64,000 nt of DNA, taken from contig CM000150.2 in the NCBI GenBank assembly GCA_000004695.1, positions 64,001 to 128,000 on the forward strand, given 5' to 3'. A program made the translations under genes and the position numbers. This document shows, piece after piece, positions 1-39,385 of the stretch. Each line of letters opens with the position of its first letter. Position 1 is the stretch's first letter. Under the pieces are notes generated by a model. It saw nothing but the letters and a program-made list of their open reading frames with translations, was not told the DNA's origin and searched no databases. Source of the stretch: Dictyostelium discoideum. Taxonomy: Eukaryota.

Positions 1-1
1 C

Positions 2-7920: not shown

Positions 7921-7968
<48 letters not shown>

Positions 7969-8243
7969 AAATATAGTTTTCCCCTGCTTTACTTTCTCTT
8001 TTTCTCAGCCACATTAATTATGAAAATTATCAAAATGATATTTTCATAAAAGAGTTTGTTGACTCTTGTAAAACAGGTGAAGAGAAACACTGGTACCCAG
8101 ATTCAGTTCCTTTAATAAAGAGATTAATTTCAATATTAAATGATTTTAGTAGTAAATTTGACTCTAAGGCTAAAATGAGAAAAGATGCACAAGAAGCTTT
8201 TCAATTTCCTCATTCTGCACTTTACTTAAATTCTTCCCAATAA
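7540..8243 (+). pseudogene. Beta gene 2. Exon 1 is 7540-7857 with a GTATGT donor, and the last exon is about 7991-8243. The middle exon is missing because of an internal deletion of about 270 bp.
   Basis: Comparison with the inverted copy, which retains a middle exon at about 29520-29740 but lacks exon 1, and with the three-exon alpha gene. Confidence 0.45.
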
Positions 8244-8399
8244 AAGTTTTAAAATAATTTTTAAAATTTAAAAATAAATTTTATTATTAAAAAATAATAT
8301 ATCTGTGTATTTTATTGTTCACATAAAATTTTATTTCATACTATAGTTTTAAAATAATTTTTAAATTTTTTTTTTTATTTTTGTGGCATTATTAATAAG

Positions 8400-8799
8400 G
8401 TGCTTTTAAATGTAATTATTAATAATCTTTAAAATTCAATTTTTAAGGAGCTTTAAAATGTAATTATTAATATAATTTTTAATCATATTTTTAAGTAATT
8501 TTAAAGAGCATTATAAAGTTAATTTTAAAGGGCATTTTAAACTTAATTTTAAAGAGCATTATAAAGGTAATTTTAAAGGTCATTTTAAAGGTAATTTTCA
8601 AGGTCATTTTAAAGTTAATTTTAAAGGTGATTTTAAAGGTAATTTTAAAGGTGATTTTAAAGGTGATTTTAAAGGTGATTTTAAAGGTCATTTAAATAAT
8701 TGCTTTTAAATTAATTTTTAAGTGACTTTTTTATAGGACTTTAAATCCACTTTTAATTTAATTTAAAGTTGCTTTAAAGGTGTAATTTTCATCGCTGTG
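8400..8799 (+). repeat. Subterminal short tandem repeats (AATTTTAAAGGTGATTTTAAAGG…) of the beta and MITE right ends.
   Basis: The same repeats occur in inverted form at 28523-28900 and inside the MITE copies. The supplied 'MTFKITFKITFK' ORFs come from this repeat. Confidence 0.75.
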
Positions 8800-8976
8800 A
8801 CTTATAAAGTATATTTATTAAGTATACTTATTAATTGTACTTATTAAGTATTATTTATTAAGTATACTTATTAATTGTACTTATTAAGTATTACTTATTA
8901 AGTATACTTATTAATATATATTAAAAAGAGTACTTGGATTTAAAGGTGCTTTAAAGTGTTGATTTTCGCCGCTGTG
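8800..8976 (+). mobile_element. Alpha-type right-end fragment with a TAAGTATACTTA array and a terminus …TTTTCGCCGCTGTG.
   Basis: It has the same architecture as 3700-3837. Confidence 0.5.
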
Positions 8977-9178
8977 GTTGATCACAGTGCAGATACGTTT
9001 CGATTTTAAAATTCACATCTACCCTTGCACCTTTATTGTGTAGCAATTTGACCAGATCTACCTTATTTTTTTTCACTGCCCAATTCAACAACTTCTCACC
9101 GTTATCATTAATCGCAACATCTAAGTCTGGGAGTTTACTCTTGGAAGAAAGGTAAGTTGTTAGAAGAAGGTTTAACAA
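8977..9178 (-). pseudogene. Ankyrin-repeat protein fragment whose C-terminus is cut off by the transposon end.
   Basis: The motif LLNWAVKKNKVDLVKLLHNKGARVD is ankyrin-like. The frame runs into the TIR at 8976. Confidence 0.35.
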
Positions 9179-9299
9179 ATCATTACTCGGCCATGCGAAG
9201 CCAAACCCAGAGAGGTTTTTTTTTCACTATCTCGTTAAGCATTTCTGTAATAACGTAATCGCTATTACCCTCACCACGCAGTTCGATTATCATGGCAAT

Positions 9300-9503
9300 T
9301 TATTCTGGGTTAAGTTGTTTCTTTTGGCTTTTACTAAATGCTGATCTACCAAGAGATAATTGTAACTTGGCGCTACACGAATTTGAGCAGGTTGGTGGCG
9401 TACCGGTTTCCATTCTAGCTAAATAGTTCTTAGCGAGGATGCGTTTGAGCGCTCCACATAATGGACAGTAGAAGTCGAAGTATACACCGCCTTTCTCTTT
9501 CAA
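9300..9503 (-). CDS. Small C4 zinc-ribbon protein (CPLC…CSNSC). The start codon is uncertain, and a frameshifted paralog lies in G3/G4.
   Basis: Taken from the supplied ORF. The upstream frame is open with no ATG. A diverged homolog of its C-terminal part is seen in 37560-37611 and 38645-38700. Confidence 0.35.
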   Translation of the reverse strand: MKEKGGVYFDFYCPLCGALKRILAKNYLARMETGTPPTCSNSCSAKLQLSLGRSAFSKSQKKQLNPE

Positions 9504-9861
9504 AAATCTGCGATAACGTTCACTCTTAATTCGATTCTCTTCTACTGTAAGAATCTGATATCGTCATTGGTCCTATCTTCATCCATGTGATCTACTTGTT
9601 CATTGGGCGATAATAATCTACCCAACTTCACCGACATTAAGTATTATGCGTAAGTCCGAAACGATCATGGCTGCTGTTGAAGCGTTTTCTTTTATCAGAA
9701 CACTCGATTAGATATCCGAGAAGCCATTGTTCTTTAAAACGGTAACTGCAACTCTAAACGCATTTTGACTCCTTAATGGTCTATCAAGGTAGTCATGTAG
9801 GACTAAGAATATCTGCCACCGAAACCAATCATTCTACCAACTGAACTACACGAGCAAATAT

Positions 9862-9931
9862 GGAATGAGACCTAGGAGTCGAACCCAGGACCGCCGGATT
9901 TGAATCCTATGCTCAACCAAGTGAGCTCATA
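9862..9931 (-). tRNA. tRNA-like 3' portion with a T-arm (CTGGG-TTCGACT-CCTAG), acceptor strand and encoded CCA. Its 5' part is non-canonical or disrupted at the DIRS junction. A second tRNA 5'-half-like sequence (GCTCGTGTAGTTCAGTTGGTAGAAT) lies immediately downstream at about 9826-9852.
   Basis: Folded by hand. No complete cloverleaf was obtained. Confidence 0.3.
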
Positions 9932-10541
9932 TTTAAAAATTTAATTTATTAAATTATATTTGAATTTCCCAAATATTTAAGATAATTTTTTAGAATGTTC
10001 TAGAACATTCGAAGAATAAAAAATTTTCGAAAGAAAAGTAAAAATTTCGAACCGGCACAATGACGCGATCATTGCGCAAGGTCGAAAAATTAAAAATTTA
10101 ATTTATTAAATTATATTTTATATTAAATATATATATATATATTATGAATAACATTTATTTATTTGAATTTCCCAAATATTTAAGATAATTTTTTAGAATG
10201 TTCTAGAACATTCGAAGAATAAAAAATTTTCGAAAGAAAAGTAAAAATTTCGAACCGGCACAATGACGCGATAATTGCGCAAGGTCGAAAAACTGAAAAA
10301 TTCCGAACCGACACTATGCACAAATTTGTGAAGGGTCGAAAACTCTTATTTTTTTGAGTTTTGCGAAATTTTTAAGAAAATAAAAACGTATAAATAGTGG
10401 CACTAAAAACTAAAACAATTTGATTTATGGAATTCCGACTAAGGGCGGGTGGGATGGGACTAATATATATATATATATTTAATATAAAATATAATTTAAT
10501 AAATTAAATTTTTAATTTATATTATCATATATATATATATA

Positions 10542-13500
10542 TTATGAAATTTGAACGACAGTATTTAAGAAACCACCAGATTTTTCACCAATGATTCTTT
10601 TATCGTAGAAGGTATCTACAGTATCGTTTGATTTCCAACGACCCATCTTCTTGACAACGTGGAACGGAACGTTATTTGACAACAGCAGAGAAGCCATAGC
10701 GGAACGGGTAGAGTGTGATTTGAACTTGACAATATCAATGCCTGACTTTGAGAGTGTTGATAATACAATTGAATTAATATCATTAACTTGGAGCGGTTCA
10801 CCCTCATTCTTAATAAAGACAGAGTCACCCGAATGGGGCTTTCTTCTTCCTTTAGAGGCTCTAAGGTATGTTGCAATGTGGCGAACAGGGCATACTTGAG
10901 AGTTTGTATCATCTAACGATGTTAATTCTAAGATTGAAACAACACCACTTCTTTGTTCTTTAGCATTAATAACTGGACCTTTGATTGAGTCAGGAGTAAT
11001 AATGAGACCCTTGAACGACCACTTCACCAAGTCTGATGATCTTGCTAAACCAAACATTTTACAGAGTACAAGTGTCTTGTTTAATAGCGCAGTGTATGTG
11101 TACTTGGGGATGACTTTGATAGTAGATAAGTGCTTGAATACTTGATTTGCATCCCATATCTCTTTATACTTTGCAGATGAAGGACGCAACTTGTGAATAC
11201 CAGTCATAATTCTTGTAATGAATGGATCATTAACAATATCAGTTTGATTCCTAAGGAGTAACAACTGATTCAACATAGATCGATGACCGTTAATTGTTGA
11301 GAAAGCTAACGGAGGTTTGTGTTTGAATAGATGTGTAAGATAATCTATGAAAACAACTAAGGTAATGTTTGCTGGATTCAAAGAGTTCAAAGTACAGAAA
11401 TTGCGGAATCTTGTATAACTGGAGCTATATACTTTGAGAGTTGAAGGTTCCCAAGACTTCATTAACAGCTCAGCTGTTTTTGTATTTGTTGTACGAGCAA
11501 AGGACATTACATGAGATTGGAAAGTTGAATAATCCCCAGCTTCCAACGTTGTTGAATCTGGATTGGTATCGACTCTACTGATTGTTTGGTCAATACTTCT
11601 TGGAATGTTCCCAGTACTTGAGGAAACATGTGACGATGATGACGAGGAACTTGTGCTTGAATCATCGGATACCAAGTTGCTGATCTCCAGATTGGGAAGA
11701 TCAGTATTATAGAAACCTTCTTCGAACTGGATGAGTTCATCTTCTCCAGGATAGAAGGCAAAAGAATGGGTGGTGGGAAGGCTAGACATTGCTTCCATTG
11801 ACTCCAATCGAGGTGGAGTGCATTCATTCTTATTGTTGAGTAGTTGTTCGTTTGATGGTTGAGGTGAGATGCGAACAGATCCATCTGTATTTGACCGAAT
11901 TGAAGTTGGATGCGATTGAACACTTCCTTCTTCAGTTGCCAGTTGTAACTCTTGATTACTCTGGTCGATGATTTGTGATTCATCTCTGAAAGACGACTGA
12001 GGTGGTCGGCTTTTACATTGAAGAATCCTGGAATATGCTCTCCAATTAAGTTTACTTTCTTCTTGAGGCATTGTTTCCAAAGTTGTTCGAACAGAACTGA
12101 GAGATCTTGTATTTGACCACCCTGGCGATTGATATAAGAGAGAGTGGTAGTGTTGTCGGTTTGAATCTTCAGCTTGCAGTTGTTCAGTTTCCGACATAGC
12201 GCTTGATAGGCCATCAGCAGCGCGAGCATTTCTCGACGATTTGACGACATGTTTGATTGAGTTGTTGACCACTGGAATGACCAAGTTTTGATTACCTTGT
12301 TTCCTTTCTTGAGAGTGGCACCTGCACCTGATTCCGAGGCATCGGTTGTAAGAACATAGTCGTAACTTGGAAACAGACTGATTTCTTTTCCATTCCATTG
12401 GTTTAGAACTGTTAACCAATGTGAAATCTCTGACTTGACGTCTTGAGGAATGGGGAATGATTGATCCCAATCTCCATTGGCTAGAGTCAGACAGTGAGAG
12501 TGAAACTTGTTTGTTCGACGAGTGTAAAGTCTGAAAGGGATGACTGCATCTTTCAGTGCGATTAGCTTTCCTTTTAAACCAGCAAGCTTTCTTGGGGAGC
12601 AAAAATCTAGTTTTAAAAAGTTTCTTATTTCTTTGATGACACTTTTCTTCTTTTCTTTGGGAACAAGAAGCTTCATTGATACCGAATCGATTTGTAATCC
12701 GAGAAACGTAATTGATTGAGTTGGTTCGAGAACACTCTTTTCTAGGTTTAACTTGAAACCTAGTTTGACAAGTAAGTCCATTGTCTTTTTGAGGTTGGAT
12801 AAACATTCTTCTTTTGTTGAACCTACGATTAATAGATCGTCCAAGTAAGCGATGACGGATACGTTGATATCTCTCAACATTCGAAGTACAGGTCTTAACA
12901 GCATTGTAAAGATACGAGGAGCTGTCGATAGCCCGAACGGCATTGTTTTCCAACGGTAGTGCGAACCTTTCCACACGAAGCGGAATAAGTCTCTGTATTG
13001 TGGATCTACTAATACGTGGAGGTAGGCTTTCTTGATATCGAGTTTTACCATGTAATAACCTTGTTTGACCATTGATGGTAGATTCTTGATTCCTTCCATC
13101 TTGAATGATTGGTTGTTGATGTAAGTGTTTAACCTTTTTAAATCTAGAACTGGACGATGTAGATTCGTTCCAGGTTTTGGAACCGTAAACACGTTGGAGT
13201 AAAAAACGCGCTTTGAATAACGGTTTGGAAGTACTTGTTCGATGGCATCGTCTAATAACAAGTCTTGTACTTCCTTTGTGATGCAATCTGATTTCGGACC
13301 CTCCGGAATTGAAATCGGAATTGGGTTTAGCATCGGCTTGAAATTTGGAAGCAGATGGATTTTTAATCCATTTACGACCTCTTGACAAAAGTTTGGAAGA
13401 CCCAATTCTTTCCAAACTTGTTTGTGGTGGAATAGACGTCCACCTACTGGTAAGTTTACTTCTTGTTCTTCTGAAAACGGTTGTTGGTACCGTTGGCAGA

Positions 13501-22900: not shown

Positions 22901-25292
22901 CTTCCTTTGTGATGCAATCTGATTTCGGACCCTCTGGAATTGAAATCGGAATTGGGTTTAGCATCGGCTTGAAATTTGGAAGCAGATGGACTTTTAATCC
23001 ATTTACAACCTCTTGACAAAAGTTTAGAAGACCCAATTCTTTCCAAACTTGTTTGTGGTGGAACAGACGTCCACCTACTGGTAAGTTTACTTCTTGTTCT
23101 TCTGAAAACGGTTGTTGGTACCGTTGGCAGACTTTGTATTGTTGCTACCTGATGCAACAATACTTGGTGATCCATTGAAGTTGTTAGATCGGCCATTACT
23201 CCCACTACTGGATTTACCATTACTACTGTTTCCTGTAGTGTTATTACCACTTGAGTTAACTGATTTCTTGACATTGGACTTGGAATGATAATTCAATTTT
23301 AACAATGATTGTTTAGCTTCGTTGTTCTTTCTGATTGACTTGGCTAGCTTTCTTACACGTTCAGTTTCAGTTTCATCAAACATCTTTGGTGTATCCTTGA
23401 TCTTAATTCGTAAGAGTACTTCAGAACCATAAATTTCTTTAGCGATGTTGTTACGACGGACACGACTAAGCGATGCTTGAGCATTAACGGCTAAGACGAT
23501 TGCACTCTGAGTTAAATAACTAATAAGTTCTAAATCGACATTAGAGCTATCAGATGATAACATACTTGACATGAGAAGCAAAGGTTTTAAGCTATCGTTG
23601 ATTCGCTTTTCGACAATCAACAAGTCAGTATCATTGTTCTTGACGTTGGATGATACAGTAATACCTTCAGGTGTACCGAATGGAGCGACATTCACTTGGA
23701 AGTTAGATGGAAAGTTGAATACTTTATTCAATTCGGATATCTCATCTTTCTTGAGGATACATTCTTCTTCGACGAATAAACCTTGATTGTTAACCATATG
23801 TTTGTACTGACCAAGTAAAGTATCGGATAATTGATAATCGGTTGGAAAATCGACATTCACAGCAAAGAAAAAACCACCTTTAAATTCGCTTTAAATTAAA
23901 TTTAAATTTGCTTTAAAGTCCTGAATTAAAGCAATTTTAAAGGTAATTTTAAAGGTAATTTTTAAAGGTTACTTAAAATCACCTTAAAAAATTACATTAA
24001 AATTACCTTTTTAATGGCTTTAAAAGCGAGGTCCTGAGTTCGAATCCGTTATTTAACGGATAAATTTTTTAAAATTTTTTTTTTAATTTTTCAAAAATTA
24101 CCCAAAAGGGATTCGATCCCCCGACCCTCTATCAAAGGGTAGTCTCATCAACCATTACACCATTTGATTGCTTTGATGAAAAATTTAAAAATGATAGAAT
24201 ATTTTATCCCCATTTTTTTGTGCTAAAATTAGATCTTTTTTATTAAAAACCTTAAATTTATGTTTAAAGGAAATTTAAATTCACTTTAAATCTACTTTTA
24301 ATCTACTTTAAATCCTATTTAAAATTAATTTAAAATAAATTTTAAAGGTATTTTTAAATATCTTAAAAATTATCTTAAAAATTACCTTAAAAATCACCTT
24401 TAAAATCACCTTTAAAATCACCTTTAAAATTGCTTAAAAATTTATTTTAAAGCAAATTTTAAAGGCATTTTTAAATATCTTAAAAATTACCTTAAAAATT
24501 ACCTTAAAAATGAATTTTTTAAACGCGGCTTTAAATTCAATTTAAATCCAATTTAAATCAACTTTTCTTTAAATTTGCTTTAAAGGTGCATTTTTCTTTG
24601 CTGTGTTGTTACTTGATTCATCTTCACTTTGTTCATTCTCAGTGTCAGAGTCATCATGAGAAGGTTGGCTACGTGAATTGGTATTAGATGAGAACATAGG
24701 TTCTTTCATGAATCTAGTAAAGGCTAAGGAAAGGTTGTTGATTTGATCCTCCATTGACTTCATTCTTAAATCAAAGGATTCAGCACTATTAGAGGCAGAG
24801 GTATTGCTACTAGAGGCTTCATTATTATTAACAGTGGTAGACATATTTTATTGTTGATATCTAAAATTATAATATGAGAAAAATAATAATATTAAAAATT
24901 AATAAAGAGAAATAATTATTTGTATAAAATTTGTGTGTGTGTGTATCTTAAATATATATAGGAGGAATTCCCAAATAAAATAAATCGAATTGTTTTAGTT
25001 TTTAGTGCCACTATTTATACGTTTTTATTTTCTTAAAAATTTCGCAAAACTCAAAAAAATAAGAGTTTTCGACCCTTCACAACTTTGTGCATAGTGTCGG
25101 TTCGAAATTTTTCAGTTTTTCGACCTTACACAATGATCGCGTCATTGTGCCGGTTCGAAATTTTTACTTTTCTTTCGAAAATTTTTTATTCTTCGAATGT
25201 TCTAGAACATTCTAAAAAATTATCTTAAATATTTGGGAAATTCAAATAAATAAATGTTATTCATAATATATATATATATATGATAATATAAA
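19986..25292 (-). mobile_element. DIRS-1 copy C with frameshifts in ORF2 and ORF3. A 748-bp TIR element is inserted in ORF1.
   Basis: ORF3 pieces are 20173-21429 and 21607-23274, and ORF2 is 21708-23036. ORF1 is split into 23087-23857 and 24606-24844. The ITRs lie at 19986-20170 and 24960-25292. Confidence 0.8.
23858..24605 (+). mobile_element. MITE-like non-autonomous TIR element. Its TIRs are CACAGCAAAGAAAAAACCACCTTTAAA … TTTAAAGGTGCATTTTTCTTTGCTGTG. It has subterminal TTTAAAGG repeats and a tRNA-like core, and is flanked by a TT target duplication.
   Basis: It interrupts DIRS ORF1 exactly. The flanks read …CGACATT|…|TTGTTACT, against the intact CGACATTGTTACT at 14240. Other copies lie at 36130-36761 and 37612-38644. 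Confidence 0.75.
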
Positions 25293-26640: not shown

Positions 26641-26697
26641 TAAATGCCGTTCGGGTTATCGACAGCTCCTCGTATCTTTACAATGCTGTTACAAAGA

Positions 26698-28522
26698 GAT
26701 AGCTTTTATAAAAAATTAATGGATATTACTGGTGAAAAAATAAAATATCCAACAAATGATCCAGATGACCCATGTAAACATTTATGTAACCAAAACCAGA
26801 TGAAATTTTTTATCAAGAAAATAATGAAAATAATGAAAATAATCAAACAATTGATAATGAAGAAAATCATGATACAATTGGGTTGGTACATAGTGAAGAT
26901 GAAAACAATGAAATTATAATGGATCAAAATGAAGCAAACATTAATAATGAAAATAATGAAAATAATGAAAATGAAAATTGTCAAAATGAACCAATAAATA
27001 ATAATCAAAATAATAATATAGATATTGAAAAATCAAAAAAAAAATTAAATGAAACTGAAATTGAATTTTTAATGTTGGGAATTGAAAACTCAATAAGTTT
27101 AAAGCTTCTTGAAAAATTTAAAAGTTTTATTGACAAAAATAAAACTAATTTAAATCAAATAAGATACACACCTCAATATATTGATAAATTATTTATGGAA
27201 GATTTTCAAATAAAAGGAGAAACATTTATAAATAAAAATTATGATCACTCAATTTTTTATTTTGAAATTAAAAAAGTATTAGAAACTTTATTAAATAAAA
27301 AGCAATTTTTTGAAAGAATAGATTTTGATACAGATTTTGAAACTGGAATTTATACAAATTATAAAAGTGGTCAACAATTTAAAGATTTAAAAAATAAAAA
27401 TAAAAATAAAATTGTTTTACTTAGAATATTCACTGATAGTATGCAGTGTCAAAACAAGAAAGATTATACTATAATGCTGGATACAGAAAATTATATTGGA
27501 AATTAATTTAAAAATAATAAATTATTATTATTTGTAGTACCAAATGATTGGTTACTTAATTTCCATCAAACAATTAGGGCATTGTTTTCATCTTTTATTG
27601 GTAATGGCTTTAATTTAATTATTGAAAATGAGCAAATAGATGTTGTACCGTTTGGACTGACAATGGATATTCCAGAATTTAGAGCATCGTGTAAACTTAA
27701 TGGACATAATCCAAATGAATATGCATGTCACACATGTGACAAACCAAGATATGGTTTATTTATTTGCAAATCAGGTACATTAAGAAAACAAGAAGATATT
27801 ACAAATTTTCACTCCACCAAACCAAATTATGCTGAACTAAATGCTGATATAGAATTAAAAAAAGTATGGGAAAAAAAAGCAAAAGATATTGGTATCAAAG
27901 GTGTGGACAGAGGGTGGGTCGAACCCTTGTCCATTAATTATTTAAAAACACAGCCGGACATTTTACATAATATTTTATAAGGTGTCGCACAAAGGTGTTT
28001 AAATTACATTTTTGATAAATATAAAAATAAAATTGCAAATTTTTTAAATAATTTAAAAAATGCAAAAATAATAGATAACAAACCAAAACCAGCAATTTCA
28101 CTATTTGCAAATAAAACAAGGAAAGGAAGAGATAATAGATCAATATTATATTACCTTTTGATGTCAATTAAAAATCAAATATCAAATGATGATTTTTTAA
28201 TTATGGAATAATTAGTAACTATATGTTTTAAATTATACAGTGACTCTTTTGATGAAAATGATTTAAATTCACTTCAAGAATTAATTGAAAGTAAATTTAA
28301 TTACTGAAACAGAAATAATGAATTTCCACTTGTAATTACATTATCCAATTTATATAAAAAATTTAGGTGCTCCAAAATACACTTCAGCTGAAACTTTTGA
28401 AGCACAATTATCAAGAATTAAAAATTATTTAAATAATAATACAAATAATAGGGATGAACAATATGAAAGGGTTTCCAAAGAAAACATGGTGAAATTTTTT
28501 AATTCAGTAGATAAATTAAAAA
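26698..28522 (+). mobile_element. Beta DNA-transposon fragment, 5'-truncated, with multiple stop codons.
   Basis: Colinear with 5130-6960. ORF pieces lie at 26883-27506 and 27582-27980. Confidence 0.7.
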
Positions 28523-29421
28523 CACAGCGATGAAAGTTACACCTTTAAAGCAACTTTAAATTAAATTAAAGTGGATTTAAAGTCCTATAAAAAAGTCACT
28601 TAAAAATTAATTTAAAAGCAATTTTTTAAATGACCTTTAAAATCACCTTTAAAATCACCTTTAAAATTACCTTTAAAATCACCTTTAAAATTAACTTTAA
28701 AATGACCTTGAAAATTACCTTTATAATGCTCTTTAAAATTAACTTTAAAATGCCCTTTAAAATTACCTTTATAATGCTCTTTAAAATTACCTTTAAAATG
28801 ACCTTTAAAATGACCTTTAAAATTACCTTTATAATTTTTTTTAAAATTAAGTTTAAAATGCCCTTTAAAATTAACTTTATAATGCTCTTTAAAATTACTT
28901 AAAAATATGATTAAAAACTATATTAATAATTACATTTTAAATCTCCTTAAAAATTGAATTTTAAAGTTTATTAATAATTACATTTAAAAGCACCTTATTA
29001 ATAATGCAAAAATAAATAAAAAAATTTTAAAAATTATTTTAAAACTATAGTATGAAATAAAATTTTATGTGAACAATAAAATACACAGATATATTATTTT
29101 TTAATAATAAAATTTATTTTTAAATTTTAAAAATTATTTAAAACTTTTATTGGGAAGAATTTAAGTAAAGTGCAGAATGAGGAAATTGAAATGCTTCTTG
29201 TGCATCTTTTCTCATTTTAGCCTTAGAGTCAAATTTACTACTAAAATCATTTAATATTGAAATTAATCTCTTTATTAAAGGAACTGAATCTGGGTACCAG
29301 TGTTTCTCTTCACCTGTTTAACAAGAGTCAACAAACTCTTTTATGAAAATATCATTTTGATAATTTTCATAATTAATGTGGCTGAGAAAAAGAGAAAGTA
29401 AAGCAGGGGAAAACTGTATTT

Positions 29422-29471
<50 letters not shown>

Positions 29472-29749
29472 TATTTTGTAAATTTTGATTATATTAATTT
29501 ATACACACAATTTCATTACCAAAAAATACTTGGCTATCGGAAATATAAACTTTAAGATTGTGGTTTTTTTCACCTTTTGAATAAATGGCTAAACTGTCAG
29601 CTACTTTTGTTCTTGTGTTACTATCCTTATTACTTACCCATTTCGTTAACCTTGCAAAAATATTTTGACTGGTACAATCTTCGTTACTACCACCAGCTTG
29701 TTTAATTATTCCAGTAATAAAGAAATTTGAAACCTATTTATTTAAATTA

Positions 29750-29786
<37 letters not shown>

Positions 29787-32603
29787 ATTAATCTGGTAAC
29801 ATACATCGCCATCTGAAAAGTATTTACTTTGACAAACTTTCTGAAGACTTTCGTATTCCAATATGTATTGAAATCATTTTCGCTTTTTCAGTCTGCCCGA
29901 AAATGAAAAAAAATTAAAAAAAATCATTTTTTACATAAAAATGTAAAAATTATGTAAAAAAGTTTTTAATTTTTTGATTTATTATTTTTTGAAGCCGAGA
30001 TTTTATCGTGGCATTTGTAAATTATAAGGTAATTGGTATCATCAATTTGAATTGGTAAAACATTATTTAGAATATTATCATATGTAATATAATTTAATTC
30101 ATTTGAAAGAAAATGGTATTTGTTAAATTGGTCACCAACATATTTGTCAAATAATTTAATAATATTGCATGTTTTATTATGTTATCATCCATTTCAATCA
30201 TTGATATTGAATTGATAATACCTGACCATCTACCTGAAAGTTCATTATCTGATGCAACTTCAACTGCATCACCAACATTGTATATTTCTTTATTATTTTT
30301 AATTGATGAGTGATTATTTATATTTTTATAATTTTGAAATAATGAATCTAATTTAATTTTTATGTTATCTAAATTATCTGGATTTTTTATTTTGTTACCA
30401 ATAATTAAAGCTGTACTTTCAATTTCAATACTTTTTAATTTATCTACTGATTTAAAAAATTTCACCATGTTTAATTTGGTAACCCTTTCATATTGTTCGT
30501 CCCTATTATTTGTATTATTATTTAAATAATTTTTAATTCTTGAGAATTGTGCTTCAAAAGTTTCAGCTGAAGTGTATTTTGGTGCACCCCAATTTTTTAT
30601 ATAAATTGGATAATGTAACAACAAGTGGAAATTCATTATTTCTGTTACTTTAAACATCTTTGCGCGACACCTAATAAAATATGTAAAATGTCTGGTTGTG
30701 TTTTTAAATAATTAATGGACAAGGGTTCGACCCACCCTCTGTCCACACCTTTGATACCAATATCTTTTGCTTTTTTTCCCATACTTTTTTTAATTCTATA
30801 TCAGCATTTAGTTCAGCATAATTTGGTTTGGTGGAGTGAAAATTTGTAATATCTTCTTGTTTTCTTAATGTACCTGATTTGCAAATAAATAAACCATATC
30901 TTGGTTTGTCACATGTGTGACATGCATATTCATTTGGATTATGTCCATTAAGTTTACACGATGCTCTAAATTCTGGAATATCCATTGTCAGTCCAAACGG
31001 TACAACATCTATTTGCTCATTTTCAATAATTAAATTAAAGCCATTACCAATAAAAGATGAAAACAATGCCCTAATTGTTTGATGGAAATTAAGTAACCAA
31101 TCATTTGGTACTACAAATAATAATAATTTATTATTTTTAAATTAATTTCCAATATAATTTTCTGTATCCAGCATTATAGTATAATCTTTCTTGTTTTGAC
31201 ACTGCATACTATCAGTGAATATTCTAAGTAAAACAATTTTATTTTTATTTTTATTTTTTAAATCTTTAAATTGTTGACCACTTTTATAATTTGTATAAAT
31301 TCCAGTTTCAAAATCTGTATCAAAATCTATTCTTTCAAAAAATTGCTTTTTATTTAATAAAGTTTCTAATACTTTTTTAATTTCAAAATAAAAAATTGAG
31401 TGATCATAATTTTTATTTATAAATGTTTCTCCTTTTATTTGAAAATCTTCCATAAATAATTTATCAATATATTGAGGTGTGTATCTTATTTGATTTAAAT
31501 TAGTTTTATTTTTGTCAATAAAACTTTTAAATTTTTCAAGAAGCTTTAAACTTATTGAGTTTTCAATTCCCAACATTAAAAATTCAATTTCAGTTCCATT
31601 TAATTTTTTTTTTGATTTTTCATTATCTAAATTATTATTAAGATTATTATTTATTGGTTCGTTTTGAGCATTTTCATTTTCATTATTTTCATTATTTTCA
31701 TTATTAATGTTTGCTTCATTTTCATCTATTCTAATTTCATTGTTTTCATCTTCACTATGTACCAACCCAATTATATCATGATTTTCTTCATTATCAATTG
31801 TTTGATTATTTTCATTATTTTCATTATTTTCTTGATAAAAAATTTCATCTTGGTTTTGGTTACATAAATGTTTACATGGGTCATCTGGATCATTTGTTGG
31901 ATATTTTATTTTTTCACCAGTAATATCCACTAATTTTTTATAAAAGCTATCTCTTTTTTGATTATTTGTAATAATTTTATTTTGTTCATTTTTACATTTT
32001 TTGGTGTTGAAATGTCCATTTACATCATAAAATTGTTTATAAGAACGGTAATATGCAAGACAAAATGGACATATATTTTTATGCATAATATAATGAATAA
32101 TAATATTTTTAAAATTCTTTAATTTTTCTCTGCAATTAATGCATGACATGTTATTTAAATTCATTTTGTTTGCTGGCTGGAAATTAAAAATAATATTTTT
32201 TTTTTTTTTTTCCTCGAGTTTTTACGTTTTTTTTTTTTTTTTTTTTTCATTTTATTCAAATTTTAGCATTTTAGCAAGTAGATATATGATTTAGTACTTA
32301 GAATTTTATATTTAGAGGGATATACCCCATTTTCAAAAAATGACCGGGAACCTATGACCCTGTCTATACCTTTTTCTTTTTAAAATATTAAAAAAAAAAA
32401 CTATAAAATCTGCCCAATTTATTGTAAAACTACACTAATGCAATAATATACATGTGCACTCGTTAATTGTTTATTAATTATAAAAAATAAAAAATAAAAA
32501 ATCTTTTTTTATATGTATGTTTATACTTATAATATAAATATGAAAAACAAATAATTAAATTTTTTTTTTTTTTTTTTTGATATTTTTCGCTTTTTGAAAT
32601 GAA
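28523..32603 (-). mobile_element. Beta DNA transposon, inverted near-full-length copy. It includes the right-end subterminal repeats (28523-28900).
   Basis: It is the reverse complement of 4489-8799. The large ORF is in pieces at 32164..31142, 31066..30704 and 30657..30094. Gene 2 retains its middle and last exons but lacks exon 1. The terminal sequence at about 32580-32603 is degenerate. Confidence 0.65.
31142..32164 (-). pseudogene. Beta large-ORF N-terminal portion. The N-terminus (MNLNNMSCINCREKLKNFKNIII…) is intact and the downstream part is frameshifted.
   Basis: Supplied ORF, homologous to 4914-5940. Confidence 0.6.
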
Positions 32604-32829: not shown

Positions 32830-33135
32830 AATAAATAGTGTAAAAATTGATTTGAAATGTATTTAAAATGCATTTAAAATGTATTTTAAAAAATATAATT
32901 AATAAAAGCTTAAAAAAGGATTAATAAGTAATTTTAAATTACATTAAAAATAACTTTTTTAAATTTATTATAAAGTGATTAAAACATTATTTAAAAACCG
33001 CTTTATAATAAATTTAAAAGGTCATTTTTAATGTAATTTTAAATGACCTTAAAAATATCTTTAAAATTACCTTTTTAAAAAGCAAATTTTAAGCCAATTT
33101 AAAGTTGATTTAATGGTGTAATTTTCATCGCTGTG
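32830..33135 (+). mobile_element. MITE/beta-type right-end fragment with TTTAAAGG repeats and a terminus …TCATCGCTGTG at 33135.
   Basis: It has the same terminus as 8799. Confidence 0.55.
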
Positions 33136-34615: not shown

Positions 34616-34858
34616 CACCGTCCAATAGCTCGTTAATGGATATAATTCTTTCGTGGAACGTTTTAATGTGCGGGTGTTTCCGCGCCAATGACGGCTAGCT
34701 GGTGGTCGCTTTTTGTAATAACAAACAAGATTGAACAGAGATATCATCATTAGCGATCAACTTAAATAAATAGTCGACAGTCTGGGGAGTAGTGGGCATT
34801 TCTGGATCGATAAGGTAAGCGTGACGATTATTTTAAATGGTTTCGCCTAAGCCCTTAA

Positions 34859-35108
34859 CTACTGTAGCAAAGCACGTTTGAAATATAAATTAAATACCAC
34901 AACTAGAACGTTAGGGTTACGTATAGCATACTCAATTAACCAGCGAGTTTTCCCAGTTTGACGTGAGCCACTGAAGCCAATTGTAAACAACTCTCGTAAA
35001 TGACATGCCTTAGTACCGCCAAGATTATTAGCAGCGCTACGCATTATTAATCGCAATACTTTTCTCAAGTTCTTGAACTATCGCATCATAATCAATTGTA
35101 GACGTCAT
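34859..35108 (-). pseudogene. P-loop NTPase pseudogene with a Walker A motif GFSGSRQTGKT. The N-terminal ORF MTSTIDYDAIVQELEKSIAINNA stops and then frameshifts into the Walker A frame.
   Basis: The SRQxGKT signature resembles the Walker A motif of T4 gp17 large terminase (SRQLGKT). An SD sequence GAGGT lies 9 nt upstream of the ATG. The G5 paralog (61993-62139) is truncated by a TAA stop after the Walker A serine-arginine. Confidence 0.4.
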
Positions 35109-35120
35109 GATTTTTTTACC

Positions 35121-35288
35121 TCATTTATTTAAGTGGTTGTATGAACTCACAGGGTTATAGTCCTCATAAACAGGAAGTAGTAGACCAGGTGCATTAGGCA
35201 TTGTTATTAATACACGCTGCCCACGCACATAAGGTTGGTTGTTAACATATTTAAAATCAGTTGCCACATAGCCTTTTGGAATTTCCAT
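35121..35288 (-). CDS. Small ORF of 55 aa (MEIPKGYVATDFKYVNNQPYVRGQRVL…). Its stop codon overlaps the RBS of the next gene.
   Basis: An intact paralog lies in G5 (62151-62328) with an in-frame 3-codon indel. The gene layout is bacterial-style. Confidence 0.4.
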   Translation of the reverse strand: MEIPKGYVATDFKYVNNQPYVRGQRVLITMPNAPGLLLPVYEDYNPVSSYNHLNK

Positions 35289-35530
35289 GGTAAACTAATC
35301 CTCTTAATAGGGGACCGATGGCGGGTTGACCGTCAGACTTCTACAACACCCAACCACGTAATATCGGAGTGCTTCTGTCATTGTTATTTTATTTTTAGAT
35401 GCTACGCGGTTGATTGTGGTTTACTTACACCAAAGTGTAAGCGTCGGTTATTTGCTGGCATACTTTCAGCCACGTCCCAAGTCTCCAATTCACCGCCTTC
35501 CTGCTATTAATGGTGCCTAATGACGGACAT

Positions 35531-35568
35531 TCATCTCAAAATAAAACCAGGAGGGGTAAAACCCTCCT
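35531..35568 (-). terminator. Rho-independent terminator-like hairpin (AGGAGGG-GTAAAA-CCCTCCT) followed on the minus strand by TTTTATTTT.
   Basis: A 7-bp GC-rich stem plus a T-run, conserved in the G5 paralog at 62567-62601. Confidence 0.45.
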
Positions 35569-35889
35569 ATATACTAATCTTACGGACGTGGTGATATCGA
35601 ATACCACATTCTGTAATTTGGATCATGCTGGGTGTTATTTAATGTTTTGGCTATTGCTATAACCGACCGAGCTACTGTGTTTCCACAGAAATGACTCGAA
35701 CCATCGACCCACAGCGTGTATATAGTGAGCTGGTGGTTTAACCTCCCAAGGGCGGTGTTCGACTATTCGTCAAACGAAGACAAGCTTTTTAATTTAATTA
35801 AACTACCACACCATCTTCAATTTCGATTTTGGTAGAAGAGTTAGATTCAGTTAATCAATGTTGGCTTCGAAATCCAGAATCTCTTTTTC

Positions 35890-36078
35890 CTACTGCTTGA
35901 TTACTTTGCTGATCTCCAGCGGCTGATAACGTTCGATAACTGGATTAACGAACACAGCAATGGAAGCTTCATCGGCTTTCTTAGTACCGTTGAATGCTTC
36001 GGTGCGCGCGGTATTTTCACGCTGGTCAAAATTGGAGTTAGCGGTAACGTTGTGACGAGATATCGATTCGTAGTTCAC
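35890..36078 (-). CDS. Small ORF of 62 aa, probably GTG-initiated, of unknown function.
   Basis: Supplied ORF sitting in a compact gene array. Weak support. Confidence 0.25.
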   Translation of the reverse strand: MNYESISRHNVTANSNFDQRENTARTEAFNGTKKADEASIAVFVNPVIERYQPLEISKVIKQ

Positions 36079-36129
36079 TTTCTAAGCTTTGACAATATCG
36101 CGTTTCTCGCCTAATGCATTATGTGCATG

Positions 36130-36761
36130 TACAGCAAAGAAAAATCCACATTTAAAGCAAATTTAAAGCAAAGTTGATTTAAATTGGATTTAAATTGAAT
36201 TTAAAGCCGGGTTTAAAAAATTCATTTTCAAGGTAATTTTTAAGATAATTTTAAGATATTTAAAAATGCCTTTAAAATTTATTTTAAAATAATTTTAAAG
36301 AGGATTTAAAGTTGATTTAAAGTAGATTTAAAGTGAATTAAAATTTCCTTTAAATATAAATTTAAGGTTTTTAATAAAAAACATCTAATTTTAGATCAAA
36401 AAAATGGGGATAAAATATTCTATCATTTTTAAATTATCATCAAAGCAATCAAATGGTGTAATGGTTGATGAGACTACCCTTTGATTGATGAGACTACCCT
36501 TTTGGTAAATTTTCAAAAATTTCAAAAAAAAATTTTATAAAATTTATCCGTTAAATAACGGCTTCGAACTCCGGACCTCGCTTTTAAAGCCATTAAAAAG
36601 CTAATTCCTAAGGTAATTATAAAGGTAATTTATAAGGTGGTTTTAAAGTAACCTTAAAAATTACCTTTAAAATTACCTTAAAAATTGCTTTTGTACAGGA
36701 CTTTAAATTCGCTTTAAATTAAATTTAAATTTGCTTTAAAGGTGGTTTTTCTTTCACTGTG
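36130..36761 (-). mobile_element. MITE-like TIR element copy. It has the opposite orientation to 23858-24605 and is inserted between G2 and G3.
   Basis: Its termini are TACAGCAAAGAAAAATCC… and …GGTGGTTTTTCTTTCACTGTG. The interior is colinear with the 23858 copy and includes the tRNA-like core at about 36440-36500. Confidence 0.7.
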
Positions 36762-37026
36762 TAGTGTATTCTTTGCCAGCTACGGTAATAAGCGTACTAG
36801 CGTTGGACAATATCACTTTAGCAAGGATATCTTCACGCACACGAATGATATCTTGTAAACCATGGTAGTTTTCTTTGATCGCATCAGAAACCGCCCCAAC
36901 GGAATCATTGAAACCAGCTTCTTGGGCGAATTCATCAGTACCGCGAGTTAGTGAAATAAGCATCAGACCGTTGGACATGGATTTAACCGTGGCCAATGTA
37001 CGGGTAATTGAAATCTTAGTAGCCAT
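36754..37026 (-). CDS. Small ORF of 90 aa (MATKISITRTLATVKS…). Its last codons run into the inserted TIR element.
   Basis: TATAAAGG and AGGAAA lie upstream of the ATG. With the insertion removed, the frame continues three codons to a TAA stop. Confidence 0.35.
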   Translation of the reverse strand: MATKISITRTLATVKSMSNGLMLISLTRGTDEFAQEAGFNDSVGAVSDAIKENYHGLQDIIRVREDILAKVILSNASTLITVAGKEYTTQ

Positions 37027-37157
37027 TATATTTCCTTTTCCTTTATACGTTATAGACAGAGTGCCGAACCCTGTTTTAGAGAACGGTAGAGGCTTTCACT
37101 CTTAGGCTTTCATCGATCCCCGTTCGTGACCGTTTAGCGATTTCTTTAGATCTTAAT

Positions 37158-37247
37158 TGGTAGAGAATTAGAGATTCGAACTCTAGGAGCGGTTTCCCGC
37201 CCGACGGTTTTTAAGACCGTTACCTTGAACCACTCGGACAATTCTCC
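37158..37247 (-). tRNA. Type-II tRNA-like gene, probably tRNA-Leu (anticodon UAA), with a long variable arm and an encoded 3' CCA.
   Basis: Hand fold. The acceptor is GGAGAAT/ATTCTCT and the anticodon stem is ACGGT/ACCGT with loop CTTAAAA. The variable hairpin is GCGG-GAAA-CCGC. The T-arm is TAGAG-TTCGAAT-CTCTA, followed by A and CCA. The D-arm pairing is imperfect. Confidence 0.5.
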
Positions 37248-37406
37248 AATTGGGTGACACCCATTAGAATTTCACGTAGCTCTATAGCTATTACAGTCAA
37301 TACTAACACTTCACAAAAAGGCCTGGTTAACCCCTACTGATTGAACTTAGGTTGTCTTAGAGTTCCTACCAGGAAAACTGCAACTGATATCATTGTTTGG
37401 TGATTA

Positions 37407-37439
37407 CAAAAAAGACCAGTGTTATTGGCTGGTCTTTTT
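37407..37439. terminator. Bidirectional intrinsic-terminator-like hairpin AAAAAAGACCAG-TGTTATTGG-CTGGTCTTTTT. A mirrored copy lies in the palindrome arm at about 37905-37940.
   Basis: An 8-bp stem flanked by an A-run and a T-run. Confidence 0.45.
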
Positions 37440-37611
37440 GAGTTATACGATACCGTTCTCTTTACGATAACGGAATATTTTTGATCTATCGATATTAAGC
37501 ATTTCTGCAATTACTTAATCGCTATTACCTCACCAAGCAGTTCGATAATCATGGCAATATGTTCTGGGTTAAGTTGTGTCTTTTGGCTTTTACTTAATGC
37601 TGATCTACCAA

Positions 37612-37739
37612 CACAGCGAAGAAAAAACCACCTTTAAATTCGCTTTAAATTAAATTTAAATTTGCTTTAAAGTCCCGAATTAAAGCAATTTTAAAGGTAA
37701 TTTTAAAGCGAATTTAAAGGTGGTTTTTTCTTCGCTGTG
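37612..37739. mobile_element. Centre of the palindrome. It is MITE left end nt 1-98, then the reverse complement of nt 31-1, joined at a TTTAAAG microhomology.
   Basis: CACAGCGAAGAAAAAACCACCTTTAAATTCG lies at 37612 and its reverse complement ends at 37739. Confidence 0.7.
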
Positions 37740-38016
37740 TTGGTAGATCAGCATTAAGTAAAAGCCAAAAGACACAACTTAACCCAGAACATATTGCCAT
37801 GATTATCGAACTGCTTGGTGAGGTAATAGCGATTAAGTAATTGCAGAAATGCTTAATATCGATAGATCAAAAATATTCCGTTATCGTAAAGAGAACGGTA
37901 TCGTATAACTCAAAAAGACCAGCCAATAACACTGGTCTTTTTTGTAATCACCAAACAATGATATCAGTTGCAGTTTTCCTGGTAGGAACTCTAAGACAAC
38001 CTAAGTTCAATCAGTA

Positions 38017-38644
38017 AAACACTAAAAATTACCTTTAAAATTACCTTTAAAATTACCTTTTTAATCGCTTTAAAAGCGAGGTCCTGAGTTCGAAGCCGTT
38101 ATTTAACGGATAAATTTTTTAAAATTTTTTTTTTTAATTTTTCAAAAATTACCAAAAGGGATTCGATCCCCCGACCCTCTATCAAAGGGTAGTCTCATCA
38201 ACCATTACACCATTTGATTGCTTTGATGAAAATTTAAAAATGATAGAATATTTTATCCCCATTTTTTTGTTCTAAAATTAGATCTTTTTTATTAAAAACC
38301 TTAAATTTATGTTTAAAGGAAATTTAAATTCACTTTAAATCTACTTTAAATCTACTTTAAATCCTATTTAAAATTAATTTAAAATAAATTTTAAAGGTAT
38401 TTTTAAATATCATAAAAATTATCTTAAAAATTACCTTAAAAATCACCTTTAAAATCACCTTTAAAATCACCTTTATAAATTTATTTTAAAGCAAATTTTA
38501 AAGGCATTTTTAAATATCTTAAAAATTACCTTAAAAATTACCTTAAAAATGAATTTTTTAAACGCGGCTTTAAATTCAATTTAAATCCAATTTAAATCAA
38601 CTTTTCTTTAAATTTGCTTTAAAGGTGCATTTTTCTTTGCTGTG
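38017..38644 (+). mobile_element. Remainder (about nt 100 to the end) of the same MITE copy, with a right terminus …TTTCTTTGCTGTG at 38644.
   Basis: Colinear with 23955-24605. Once the inverted-duplication insert is removed, the whole MITE is flanked by an AA target duplication (…CTACCAA| and |AAGAGATCC). Confidence 0.65.
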
Positions 38645-38693
38645 AAGAGATCCAGTTCTACCATTCTGGCGATGCTTGCTTGCCGATCAGTCA

Positions 38694-38808
38694 TTAACGA
38701 ATCTTCTTCAGTAACTGAGTACGAAGAATTGGATTAGCATCTCGCTTGGCTTTATCGGCCGCTGCAGTGCGTTTTGTACAGTTACCAAAATCAAAAGATT
38801 TACATGGC
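38694..38808 (-). CDS. Small ORF of 38 aa (MPCKSFDFGNCTKRTAAADKAKRDANPILRTQLLKKIR). It has a perfect RBS (GGAGG 7 nt upstream), and its stop overlaps the next start (TAATGA).
   Basis: Read directly. The downstream overlapping gene MTDRQASIARMVELDL… is interrupted by the MITE. Confidence 0.4.
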
Positions 38809-38851
38809 ATGACATCCCTCCATTGACTTAAAAGAAAAATAAGGGGATAAC

Positions 38852-39052
38852 ATGTGTTCTGGTCAAGCCATACCCTTAATGAGGGTGTTAATCTTCGTCA
38901 TAATAATTTTGATCTTTTGGAGTACTTGCATGCAGAGAGGTTATGGGGACCATCCCTACACATTATATCCGGTACTGTGTAAAACTTTACATATCAATAG
39001 ATCAAAAATAAGAGGATGTAGTACATCCCCTCTTTCAATTAAGGCAACATGA
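38852..39052 (+). CDS. Small hydrophobic ORF of 66 aa with an RBS (AAGGGG 5 nt upstream of the ATG).
   Basis: Supplied ORF. A hydrophobic stretch (LMRVLIFVIIILIFW) suggests a membrane peptide. Confidence 0.3.
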   Translation: MCSGQAIPLMRVLIFVIIILIFWSTCMQRGYGDHPYTLYPVLCKTLHINRSKIRGCSTSPLSIKAT

Positions 39053-39330
39053 CCCTAGTCAAGTAGCGCATTGTGTCACGTAATAGGGATACACGCCCGC
39101 GATTAAGATCAACAATACCGTAGTTCAAATGAATAGAATCGTTATATATACCTTCTGCGTTAAGCCTGAAGTTCAAACGCGAACGGAGCGTAGTATGAAC
39201 CTGACCTTCACTTCTGAAAATGTGTACTCGTTATCTAACGCCACATCAAAGGCAGGCCAACCTGTTAATGCTGTTGATCTTATCCCAATTACGTGAAACA
39301 ATGCGCTACTTGGCTAAGGTCATGGTGGCC
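39048..39330. repeat. Pair of imperfect inverted repeats of about 60-75 bp (39048-39125 and 39255-39330). They flank a core of about 130-190 bp that carries a 33-codon ORF with a GGAG RBS.
   Basis: The left repeat reads CATGACCCTAGTCAAGTAGCGCATTGTGTCACGTAATAGGGATA…AGATCAACAATACC. The right repeat is its reverse complement with a 14-bp indel. Confidence 0.5.
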
Positions 39331-39385
39331 AATACAACTCCACCTGTAAACCTTTCACCAACCACTTGTCATTGACTAATAACTA

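Follow-up and report, generated by a model that had tools for sequence, protein, structure and literature searches.

The DNA considered here is a stretch of 64,000 nucleotides of Dictyostelium discoideum (GCA_000004695.1, contig CM000150.2, positions 64,001 to 128,000), referred to as a whole as the window, and the element in question is a short sequence at 23858-24605 that a preliminary description, made from the letters alone, had flagged as one copy of a family resembling MITEs, the miniature transposable elements with inverted repeats. The flagged sequence belongs to a real family of ~750-bp non-coding DNA transposons, a "hitch-hiker" family in a centromeric repeat cluster. The window itself is a cluster of DIRS-1 elements, with many ~98%-identical DIRS-1 copies in both orientations, and duplicated blocks are abundant across it. 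Its gene models match AX4 chromosome 1 exactly, and a small open reading frame (ORF) on the minus strand, at 36754-37026, has 100% identity with DDB_G0267286 of AX4, a gene model that lies on the same AX4 contig as DDB_G0267274 to DDB_G0267280. We assign the region to a chromosome-end or centromeric cluster of the Glöckner and Heidel type because it combines a DIRS-1 cluster, homologues found only in D. discoideum and gene models identical to those of AX4. In such centromeric clusters of D. discoideum, DIRS-1 makes up ~49% of the sequence and a group of DNA transposons named "DDT" another ~20% (PMC2665215).

Further copies of the element were taken from D. discoideum loci around related genes, denoted L001, L003, L004 and L006, and the census of copies covers ~140 kb of D. 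discoideum centromeric sequence. L004 (GCA_054883475.1, JBTAPE010000022.1) is 99.9% identical to the window over 21 kb, and L003 is a paralogous island, 95-96% identical to a GC-richer island of the window. A fifth sequence, L002, was considered as the same locus and rejected, having only one identical DIRS copy in common with the window. The copies in the window and the parts of the flagged copy are as follows.

23858 to 24605, plus strand: MITE copy 1, a complete element of 748 bp lying in a DIRS-1 ORF and flanked by a TT duplication
23858 to 23884, plus strand: left terminal inverted repeat of copy 1, CACAGCAAAGAAAAAACCACCTTTAAA
23878 to 24009: left arm of copy 1, inverted equivalent of the TTTAAA(G/A)-type arrays of the right arm
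24274 to 24511, unstranded: right-arm subterminal arrays of 11-12-bp TTTAAA(G/A)-type units, seen with TRF and as inverted repeat pairs
24579 to 24605, minus strand: right terminal inverted repeat of copy 1 (reverse complement CACAGCAAAGAAAAATGCACCTTTAAA)
36130 to 36761, minus strand: MITE copy 2, older, 632 bp, with internal deletions, splitting an apparently phage-derived gene
37612 to 38644, plus strand: MITE copy 3, young, a full element with an AA duplication, disrupted here by an inverted duplication

At least ten miniature copies are present in the ~140 kb, three of them in the window and at least seven in the related loci. L001 holds one full but divergent copy (82% identical to copy 1), L006 two full copies and two single ends, and L003 two further ends. 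Complete copies measure 748-759 bp, the deleted copy 2 measures 632 bp, and eight aligned copies give a consensus of ~760 bp; the element is thus near the upper size limit of MITEs, which are usually <800 bp (PMC6004678). It contains no ORF longer than 37 amino acids (aa). The copies end in CACAGC[A/G]AAGAAAAA…CTGTG with inverted repeats of ~27 bp, and the two 27-bp ends of copy 1 are mismatched at two positions. With up to two mismatches, the 15-mer CACAGCAAAGAAAAA occurs seven times in the window against 0.49 expected, and the 27-nt end pattern TTTAAAGGTG-N3-TTTT-N2-T-N-GCTGTG occurs ten times against 0 expected. In both arms there are arrays of 12-bp subterminal repeats in both orientations, and the 11-12-bp TTTAAA(G/A)-type units run in opposite directions in the two arms. 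The preliminary description had reported three copies, inverted ends of about 27 bp and subterminal repeats, and all of these were confirmed, with the addition that the second copy is older and has a mutated end, TACAG. The doubt it had raised over whether CACAG ends are conserved across copies is settled by 29 ends from five sources, every one of which starts with CACAG or a 1-2-base variant (TACAG, CACAT, TGCAG). A CAC start is found in 26 of the 29, the exceptions (TACAG twice, TGCAG) belonging to the old copy 2 and its paralogue.

The copies fall into two ages. Five young copies are mutually 95-99.5% identical, most pairs at 97% or more, and copy 1 is 96.7-97.1% identical to the other complete young copies; this similarity indicates recent transposition, as judged from sequence. 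The other three, namely copy 2 and those of L003 and L001, form an older set with 82-92% identity. Copy 2 is 89% identical to copy 1, ends in TACAG… and …CACTGTG between flanks of TG and TA, and is also present in the paralogous L003 island.

Further evidence for transposition comes from the target sites. Exact 2-bp target duplications of variable sequence flank seven of eight complete elements, namely TT, AA, GG, TT and TT at five of the six complete miniature copies, and AC and TG at two copies of a larger transposon, beta, which is described below (AC for the element in the window, TG for that in L001). For three insertions there are paralogous empty sites that differ from the filled ones only by the element plus 2 bp. 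The TT at copy 1 is matched by five empty DIRS-1 sites in the window, GACATTGTTAC, and the uninterrupted DIRS-1 site at the position of copy 1 reads …ATCGACATTGTTACTTG…; therefore, the insertion of copy 1 added the element and TT. The AA at copy 3 is proven by the empty paralogous site CTACCAAGAGATCC in L003. The duplication of the L001 copy is GG/CC, and the matching empty DIRS site is found six times in the window, while both full copies in L006 are flanked by TT. The clean duplications claimed at the outset, TT inside DIRS ORF1 and AA, are thereby upheld by empty sites, and with a 2-bp duplication at seven of eight complete elements the earlier reservation that no consistent target duplication might exist falls away.

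A preference for GC-rich targets, which had been hinted at from the position of the copies, found no support. The GC content flanking 12 insertion ends (10 of them MITE ends) is 0.14-0.44, compared with a window mean of 0.31, and the finding that all three window copies lie in DNA of GC at least 0.30 is unremarkable because ~59% of the window qualifies. The insertions lie at two DIRS-1 positions, in phage-like DNA, in CAA-rich simple repeats, in alpha repeats and in a beta ORF. These data show the known clustering among other repeats (PMC2665215) and no preference for composition.

Copy 3 differs from the others by a rearrangement within it.

37722 to 38014, minus strand: inverted duplicate, perfect over 293 bp, of 37337-37629, which covers the left flank and bases 1-18 of the element; lies within copy 3

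The two sequences, the arms of a palindrome at 37335-38016, are identical at 293 of 293 positions, and ~31 bp of copy 3 have been replaced, with a TTTAAAG microhomology at one junction. The same locus in L004 lacks the inverted duplication and has a clean element of 749 bp. Thus, the element that had been reported at 37612-38644 is there in full, and its apparent length is inflated by an insertion absent from L004; this insertion stems either from a recent fold-back event or from an artefact of long reads or of assembly. We considered and rejected a separate micro-element of 128 bp at 37612-37739, its flanks being mutually inverted, not direct repeats. In L003, at 10290-10620 (read on the minus strand), copy 2 has a truncated right end, beyond which come ~330 bp of additional GC-rich DNA ending in a short inverted flank repeat (GGCAAAGAATAC…GTATTCTTTGCC), which may be a second rearrangement at a miniature-element end.

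The termini of the miniature element recur in two larger elements of the window, alpha and beta.

1 to 3837, plus strand: alpha autonomous element, cut by the start of the window, with the end …CCCCTGTG
4190 to 4488, plus strand: right-end fragment of another alpha copy, which resumes at 8800-8976 past the beta insertion
4489 to 8799, plus strand: beta autonomous element, 4311 bp, with an AC duplication, inserted in alpha-end subterminal repeats
4992 to 7109, plus strand: beta transposase ORF, 705 aa here, predicted DDE transposase of the CACTA-Mirage-Chapaev (CMC) type
7540 to 8243, plus strand: beta second gene, in two exons at ~7540-7893 and ~8000-8243 by frame translations, with an alpha homologue
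8487 to 8693, plus strand: beta right-arm array, 17 copies of the 12-bp ATTTTAAAGGTA, a unit common to the MITE arms
8800 to 8976, plus strand: second half of the split alpha right end, with the terminus CGCCGCTGTG beside phage-like DNA
28523 to 32592, minus strand: inverted beta copy, inserted in the beta fragment 26693-28522, with its right end at 28523
32830 to 33135, plus strand: isolated right end of beta type (…GGTGTAATTTTCATCGCTGTG)

Both alpha and beta code for a large protein and have a second, two-exon gene. The alpha transposase ORF (35-2041) is 52% identical to that of beta, and intact relatives of the beta transposase are 772-831 aa long; beta copies of 4311 bp (in the window) and 5034 bp were found. 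The left terminus of beta matches the miniature element at 15 of 15 positions, and the miniature end pattern is also close to the right end of beta. The 12-bp ATTTTAAAGGTA unit is present in both, compared with a 13-bp unit, ATAAGTATACTTA, in alpha, where it forms an array at 3385-3778. Outside their ends, the miniature element and beta share nothing. By the likeness of these ends, we take beta, not alpha, to be the autonomous partner of the miniature element. The sharing of the beta left end at 4489 and of the CTGTG terminus at 3837, 8799 and 8976 was therefore correctly seen in the preliminary description. Three partial ends that it had counted with the miniature copies (8400-8799, 28523-28900 and 32830-33135) turned out to be beta right ends: 8400-8799 forms the right arm of the beta at 4489-8799, a complete element, and 33109-33135 carries the beta-specific end GTGTAATTTTCATCGCTGTG. 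Its central proposal, a non-autonomous MITE-like family sharing termini with two-gene elements, is supported by inverted termini, a duplication of fixed length with empty sites, small multicopy elements lacking an ORF and an autonomous partner with the same termini.

Beside the alpha end, an imperfect CAA/ACAACA-rich tandem tract with units of 11-34 bp occupies 3838-4190. A similar CAA-rich tract in L006, at ~6000-7650, hosts two miniature copies 39 bp apart, both with TT duplications.

The large proteins of alpha and beta provide the link to a superfamily. An alignment of 13 of them has the invariant motifs LLRIF(T/S)D, (L)T(M/I)DIPEFR, CHTC, QPDILHNILLG, NFH(L/I)LLHY and SAE(T/R)FE, and close homologues occur in D. 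discoideum assemblies only. A search of 1.84 billion representative proteins with the alignment profile gave 77 matches, Dictyostelium fragments first and then remote matches with E = 3e-8 to 1e-3. When ten of the remote matches were scanned with Pfam, four passed the gathering cut-off of Transposase_21 (tnp2, CACTA/En-Spm); one also passed that of DUF1258, which three more matched below the cut-off. DUF1258 is believed to be a nematode family, and one of the scanned relatives is an insect protein, from Frankliniella fusca. Alignment of the Dictyostelium proteins with the ten remote proteins by hhalign gave a probability of 99.7% and E = 2.8e-26 over 464 columns, in which D292, D369, C389/C392, H468 and E615/E618 of beta fall on D, D, CxxC, H and E positions that do not vary among those proteins. 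The 5'-CAC…GTG-3' ends are invariable in CMC elements (PMC4079192, PMC6004678), some of which make 2-bp duplications (PMC6004678), while those of Chapaev are 3-4 bp (PMC4079192). Here, CAC…GTG ends, a 2-bp duplication and the D/D/CxxC/H/E residues in register, by an indirect link, are found together. Sequence evidence thus supports membership in the CMC superfamily for the miniature element as well as for alpha and beta, because a Transposase_21-related DDE transposase goes together with CAC…GTG ends and a 2-bp duplication, and the guess of a CACTA-like element, made from the termini by eye, proves well founded. Previously, the transposases of Dictyostelium DNA transposons were said to resemble no known transposase (PMC5633606). 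Three other ORFs of the window besides those of alpha and beta gave nothing in a Pfam scan at E up to 1.

Within the miniature element, the preliminary description had seen a tRNA-like core, and two features are relevant to it.

24037 to 24047, plus strand: second B-box-like motif, AGTTCGAATCC, convergent with that of the core, in a region conserved in 8/8 aligned copies
24099 to 24169, minus strand: tRNA-gene-like core with A-box-like and B-box-like motifs and a sub-threshold cloverleaf

The check with tRNA models that had been proposed was run and came out negative, since neither ARAGORN at default settings nor Rfam detected a tRNA in the core or elsewhere in the element. At E up to 10, Rfam returned no tRNA, only weak microRNA- and CRISPR-like chance matches. 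For ARAGORN to call a 71-nt cloverleaf at 24099-24169 on the minus strand, its score threshold has to be lowered to 85% of the default, and at that level it makes 12 calls in the 64 kb, one of them a real tRNA. The core has an A-box-like TGGTGTAATGG at its positions 8-18 with two mismatches and a B-box-like GGATCGAATCC at positions 51-61 with one mismatch. This is the canonical spacing of tRNA genes (about 8-19 and 52-62), and the boxes are kept in six of eight copies, including the most divergent. Hence, the likeness to a tRNA gene stands for the boxes and their spacing, and fails for a detectable tRNA. Across the window, eight B-box-like motifs occur against 1.4 expected. In three of four comparisons, all of which include one or more old copies, conservation is slightly higher in the central ~280 bp than in the left arm (between copy 1 and L001, 86% in the core, 77% in the left arm and 81% in the right arm), a difference to be read in view of the less reliable alignment of the low-complexity arms; such conservation may hint at constraint. 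Rather than a tRNA, the core is best described as a putative tRNA-gene-like promoter module for RNA polymerase III.

In the alpha right-end fragment, two B-box motifs, GGTTCGATTCC (4323-4333) and GGTTCAATTCC (4375-4385), lie within tRNA 3'-half-like sequences, ~290-340 bp from the alpha terminus. They may be the A/B-box site reported for DDT-B (PMC9012585), and if so, an identity of alpha with DDT-B is suggested.

Taken together, we consider it highly likely that the elements with the ~760-bp consensus are non-autonomous, MITE-like members of a D. discoideum cut-and-paste group of the CMC superfamily, almost certainly the catalogued DDT. The DDT family reportedly includes a short member lacking ORFs, DDT-S, in the account of Glöckner et al. 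2001, and the miniature form is probably this DDT-S. The context agrees with what is expected of DDT, in that the window is a DIRS-1 cluster with AX4 chromosome 1 gene models and A/B boxes are present. The element is thus very likely already catalogued as a Dictyostelium repeat of the DDT group, and literature searches on DDT-S, DDT-A and the AX4 gene identifiers returned no description of the structure of the element.

Several observations weigh against this interpretation. The assignment to DDT-S, DDT-A and DDT-B draws on context and on what Glöckner et al. 2001 reportedly described. Pfam gives no direct match to the alpha and beta proteins at E up to 1, so that the CMC link runs via intermediate sequences found with the same profile, and an AlphaFold2 model from the 13-sequence alignment was unusable (mean predicted local distance difference test score, pLDDT, of 38) and leaves an RNase H fold unsupported. 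At the left end of the window beta, the match to the miniature element is limited to 15 nt and the TTTAAAG repeats are missing, which the beta-like copy in L001 does have, and it is from the termini that we infer mobilisation of the miniature element by beta. Copy 2 is without a matching duplication (TG vs TA); removal of copy 2 plus 1 nt restores the reading frame of the interrupted phage gene, and therefore a small indel has altered the junction, making the duplication of copy 2 unreadable. Finally, the A/B-box core is a motif match, with a cloverleaf below detection thresholds.

Among other explanations, the elements may be genuine CMC miniature elements distinct from DDT-S, thug and H3R, and so form an undescribed family, which we regard as unlikely. 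Counted against it is the 2001 catalogue of Glöckner et al., which is said to be a complete list of complex repeats, and the exact matches to AX4 chromosome 1 gene models place the element in the data analysed in 2001-2005. The length of DDT-B, 5471 bp (PMC9012585), speaks for such a family, as it matches neither the 4311-bp nor the 5034-bp beta, and the incomplete alpha could fit. On the other hand, DDT is the only DNA transposon group at ~20% of the centromeres (PMC2665215), which matches the local abundance.

It is very improbable that the elements are transposons of the Tc1/mariner or Tdd (Ginger2) type with miniature deletion derivatives. Both groups exist or have been proposed in D. discoideum, Tdd is found in centromeres (PMC2665215), and a 2-bp duplication is of the length made by Tc1/mariner. 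However, the duplications are TT, AA, GG, AC and TG and never TA, those of Tdd-4 and Tdd-5 are 5 bp and come with a Gypsy-like integrase (PMC2836005), alpha and beta contain no rve or Tc1 Pfam domain, and their profile relatives are tnp2/CACTA proteins.

A Transib- or RAG-like element, the second guess prompted by the termini, is hardly credible. The termini do begin with CACAG, related to the heptamer CACAGTG, and the inverted duplication of flank and end at copy 3, possibly also beside copy 2 in L003, superficially resembles the by-products of hairpins in flanking DNA. Target duplications of Transib are 5 bp, however, and those found here are 2 bp in seven of eight elements. The checked remote relatives of the transposase carry Transposase_21 or DUF1258, and no PDB chain, those of RAG1 and Transib included, matches the transposase profile in a sequence search at E up to 10. 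Moreover, the inverted duplication is symmetric about a point within the element and not about the junction of terminus and flank, and it is absent from L004.

Equally hard to credit is a repeat spread by segmental duplication of the DIRS cluster, or a set of tRNA-derived retroposons resembling short interspersed elements, since against the abundance of duplicated blocks in the region, the duplicated island around copy 2 (L003) and the polymerase III-type A and B boxes of the core stand three precise empty sites differing by the element plus 2 bp, insertions in unrelated contexts (two DIRS positions, phage-like DNA, CAA-rich repeats), inverted termini and the lack of a poly(A) or A-rich tail and of duplications of variable length.

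For elements of a CMC-type DDT group, the following course of mobilisation can be proposed. The beta transposase would bind the shared termini and excise the miniature element in trans, and insertion at a 2-bp staggered cut, followed by repair, would give the duplication. The product of the second beta gene may bind the reiterated 12-bp motifs and help to pair the ends, by analogy with TnpA. The conserved internal core does not appear to derive from beta; it is probably a binding module for TFIIIC and RNA polymerase III, which would bind TFIIIC and TFIIIB, and it may serve the element or merely make its copies landing pads for TRE retrotransposons.

The GC-richer DNA that hosts two of the miniature copies may be of a different origin.

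34617 to 39380, unstranded: GC-richer island between DIRS-1 copies, which may be a decayed jumbo-phage fragment, hosting MITE copies 2 and 3

It contains no long ORFs and has 69-76% nucleotide similarity to Erwinia and Salmonella jumbo phages. Phage-like regions were found in the window at 34617-39380, 8977-10086 and 61838-63113, in L003 at 8709-12330 and in L004 at 7931-12409; within the window, pieces paralogous to the island lie at 9235-9352 (91.5% identity) and 61938-62674 (89.6%), and L003 also holds paralogous DNA (95-96%). A 167-aa 'tail fibre' gene remnant, split by copy 2, has 39.6% end-to-end identity to a protein of Erwinia phage Ea35-70 and corresponds to phrog_1491, with 96 matching phage records, mostly from Klebsiella, Erwinia, Salmonella and Escherichia phages. 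A P-loop remnant in the island corresponds to phrog_2586, and the other ORF remnants have no PHROG match, save for weak matches of an ankyrin-repeat remnant (E 7e-5 and 1.5e-3). An ankyrin-repeat ORF remnant occurs at 8978-9223 on the minus strand, in the GC-rich piece beside the alpha end at 8976, and in L002 a 110-aa ankyrin gene model (4942-5351) has a similar DIRS-flanked position.

The only bona fide tRNA of the window is also in the island, a type II tRNA-Leu(taa) of 90 nt at 37158-37247 on the minus strand (Rfam, 50.7 bits), which ARAGORN at default settings detects as well and which lies upstream of the phage gene remnant by ~130 bp. This tRNA is of bacterial or phage type, and because its best nucleotide matches, in a phage collection, are phage tRNA genes, it probably belongs to the phage DNA and not to the Dictyostelium gene set. 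In Ea35-70, the homologue of the remnant lies just downstream of a tRNA gene, near the gene for the PhuZ tubulin; within 18.5 kb only the 'tail fibre' homologue matched, and the upstream tRNA is a loose parallel. Another decayed phage tRNA may lie in the second GC-rich piece, at 9861-9930 on the minus strand, where ARAGORN gives a tRNA-like call below its threshold and an exact B box, GGTTCGACTCC, occupies 9875-9885.

In a search of 5.8 billion proteins, the only close relatives of the phage remnant were D. discoideum models, including DDB_G0267286 and DDB_G0294314 of AX4. The 90-aa model DDB_G0267286 represents the N-terminal portion of the phage-derived gene, and since the terminus of copy 2 supplies its final residues and stop codon, it is an annotation artefact of a pseudogene. 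Copy 2 is common to the window, L004 and the L003 paralogue, while copy 3 is absent from L003, and this distribution gives the order of events: integration of the phage DNA, insertion of copy 2, duplication of the island and insertion of copy 3. These ordered insertions argue strongly against contamination or misassembly. We lean, by a little, towards the island being a decayed fragment, several kb long, of a jumbo phage (Ea35-70/SPN3US-like, Agricanvirus-type) that has long been resident, that is, a phage-to-eukaryote transfer fixed in a centromere; this would cover at least three pieces of the window and the AX4 reference copy, annotated as the hypothetical protein DDB_G0267286. Enterobacteria, the hosts of Ea35-70/SPN3US-like phages, are prey of the amoeba. 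No description of a phage-derived island was found in a limited literature search.

As a repeat family, the miniature element is routine, given that these transposons were catalogued in 2001 and that DDT is known to fill D. discoideum centromeres. What is possibly new is the superfamily assignment and the A/B-box module in a miniature element. The CMC link supplies a mechanism and candidate catalytic residues for mutation, and dozens of mobile A/B-box copies could spread RNA polymerase III/TFIIIC sites, and with them retrotransposon landing pads, through centromeres. In addition, the transposon insertions serve as time stamps, by which the phage-derived segment is truly in the amoeba genome and not contamination.

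Among known systems, the maize CACTA element En/Spm and its non-autonomous partners dSpm/I offer a close set of parallels. They have CAC…GTG termini, a short duplication, a two-gene autonomous element, a Transposase_21-related transposase, reiterated ~12-bp subterminal motifs in both orientations and non-autonomous partners that are internally unrelated or deleted. The En/Spm end CACTACAAGAAAA resembles CACAGCAAAGAAAAA, and in maize TnpA binds the reiterated 12-bp subterminal motifs. Plant CACTA elements differ in their 3-bp duplication and CACTA terminus, compared with 2 bp and CACAG in the Dictyostelium group and its amoebozoan host, and the Pfam models of the family do not detect alpha and beta directly.

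Mirage and the animal CMC MITEs (CMC-NA_1, CMC-NA_2 and ENS1_Cis; PMC6004678) are alike in their CAC/GTG ends and 2-bp duplications, and the remote profile matches of alpha and beta also hit DUF1258. However, beyond CAC, their termini have no similarity to the Dictyostelium ends, and the Dictyostelium proteins form a clade of their own, their close homologues being confined to D. discoideum.

Loci that mimic tRNA genes with A and B boxes, such as those of the ribosomal DNA palindrome and DDT-B (PMC9012585), resemble the core of the miniature element in having boxes at tRNA-gene spacing outside a tRNA gene. The A/B-box motif of DDT-B was shown to attract the retrotransposon TRE5-A (PMC9012585), whereas no TRE5-A copy was seen beside the miniature copies among those examined.

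Also among the closest is DDT itself (DDT-A, DDT-B and DDT-S), which shares the species and the centromeric, DIRS-1-associated niche (PMC2665215) and consists of putative DNA transposons with transposases for which no relatives had been recognised (PMC5633606). The A/B-box motif of DDT-B (PMC9012585) has counterparts here in the miniature element and at the alpha end. The reviews consulted leave DDT without a superfamily, whereas the transposase relatives, termini and target duplications described here point to CMC.

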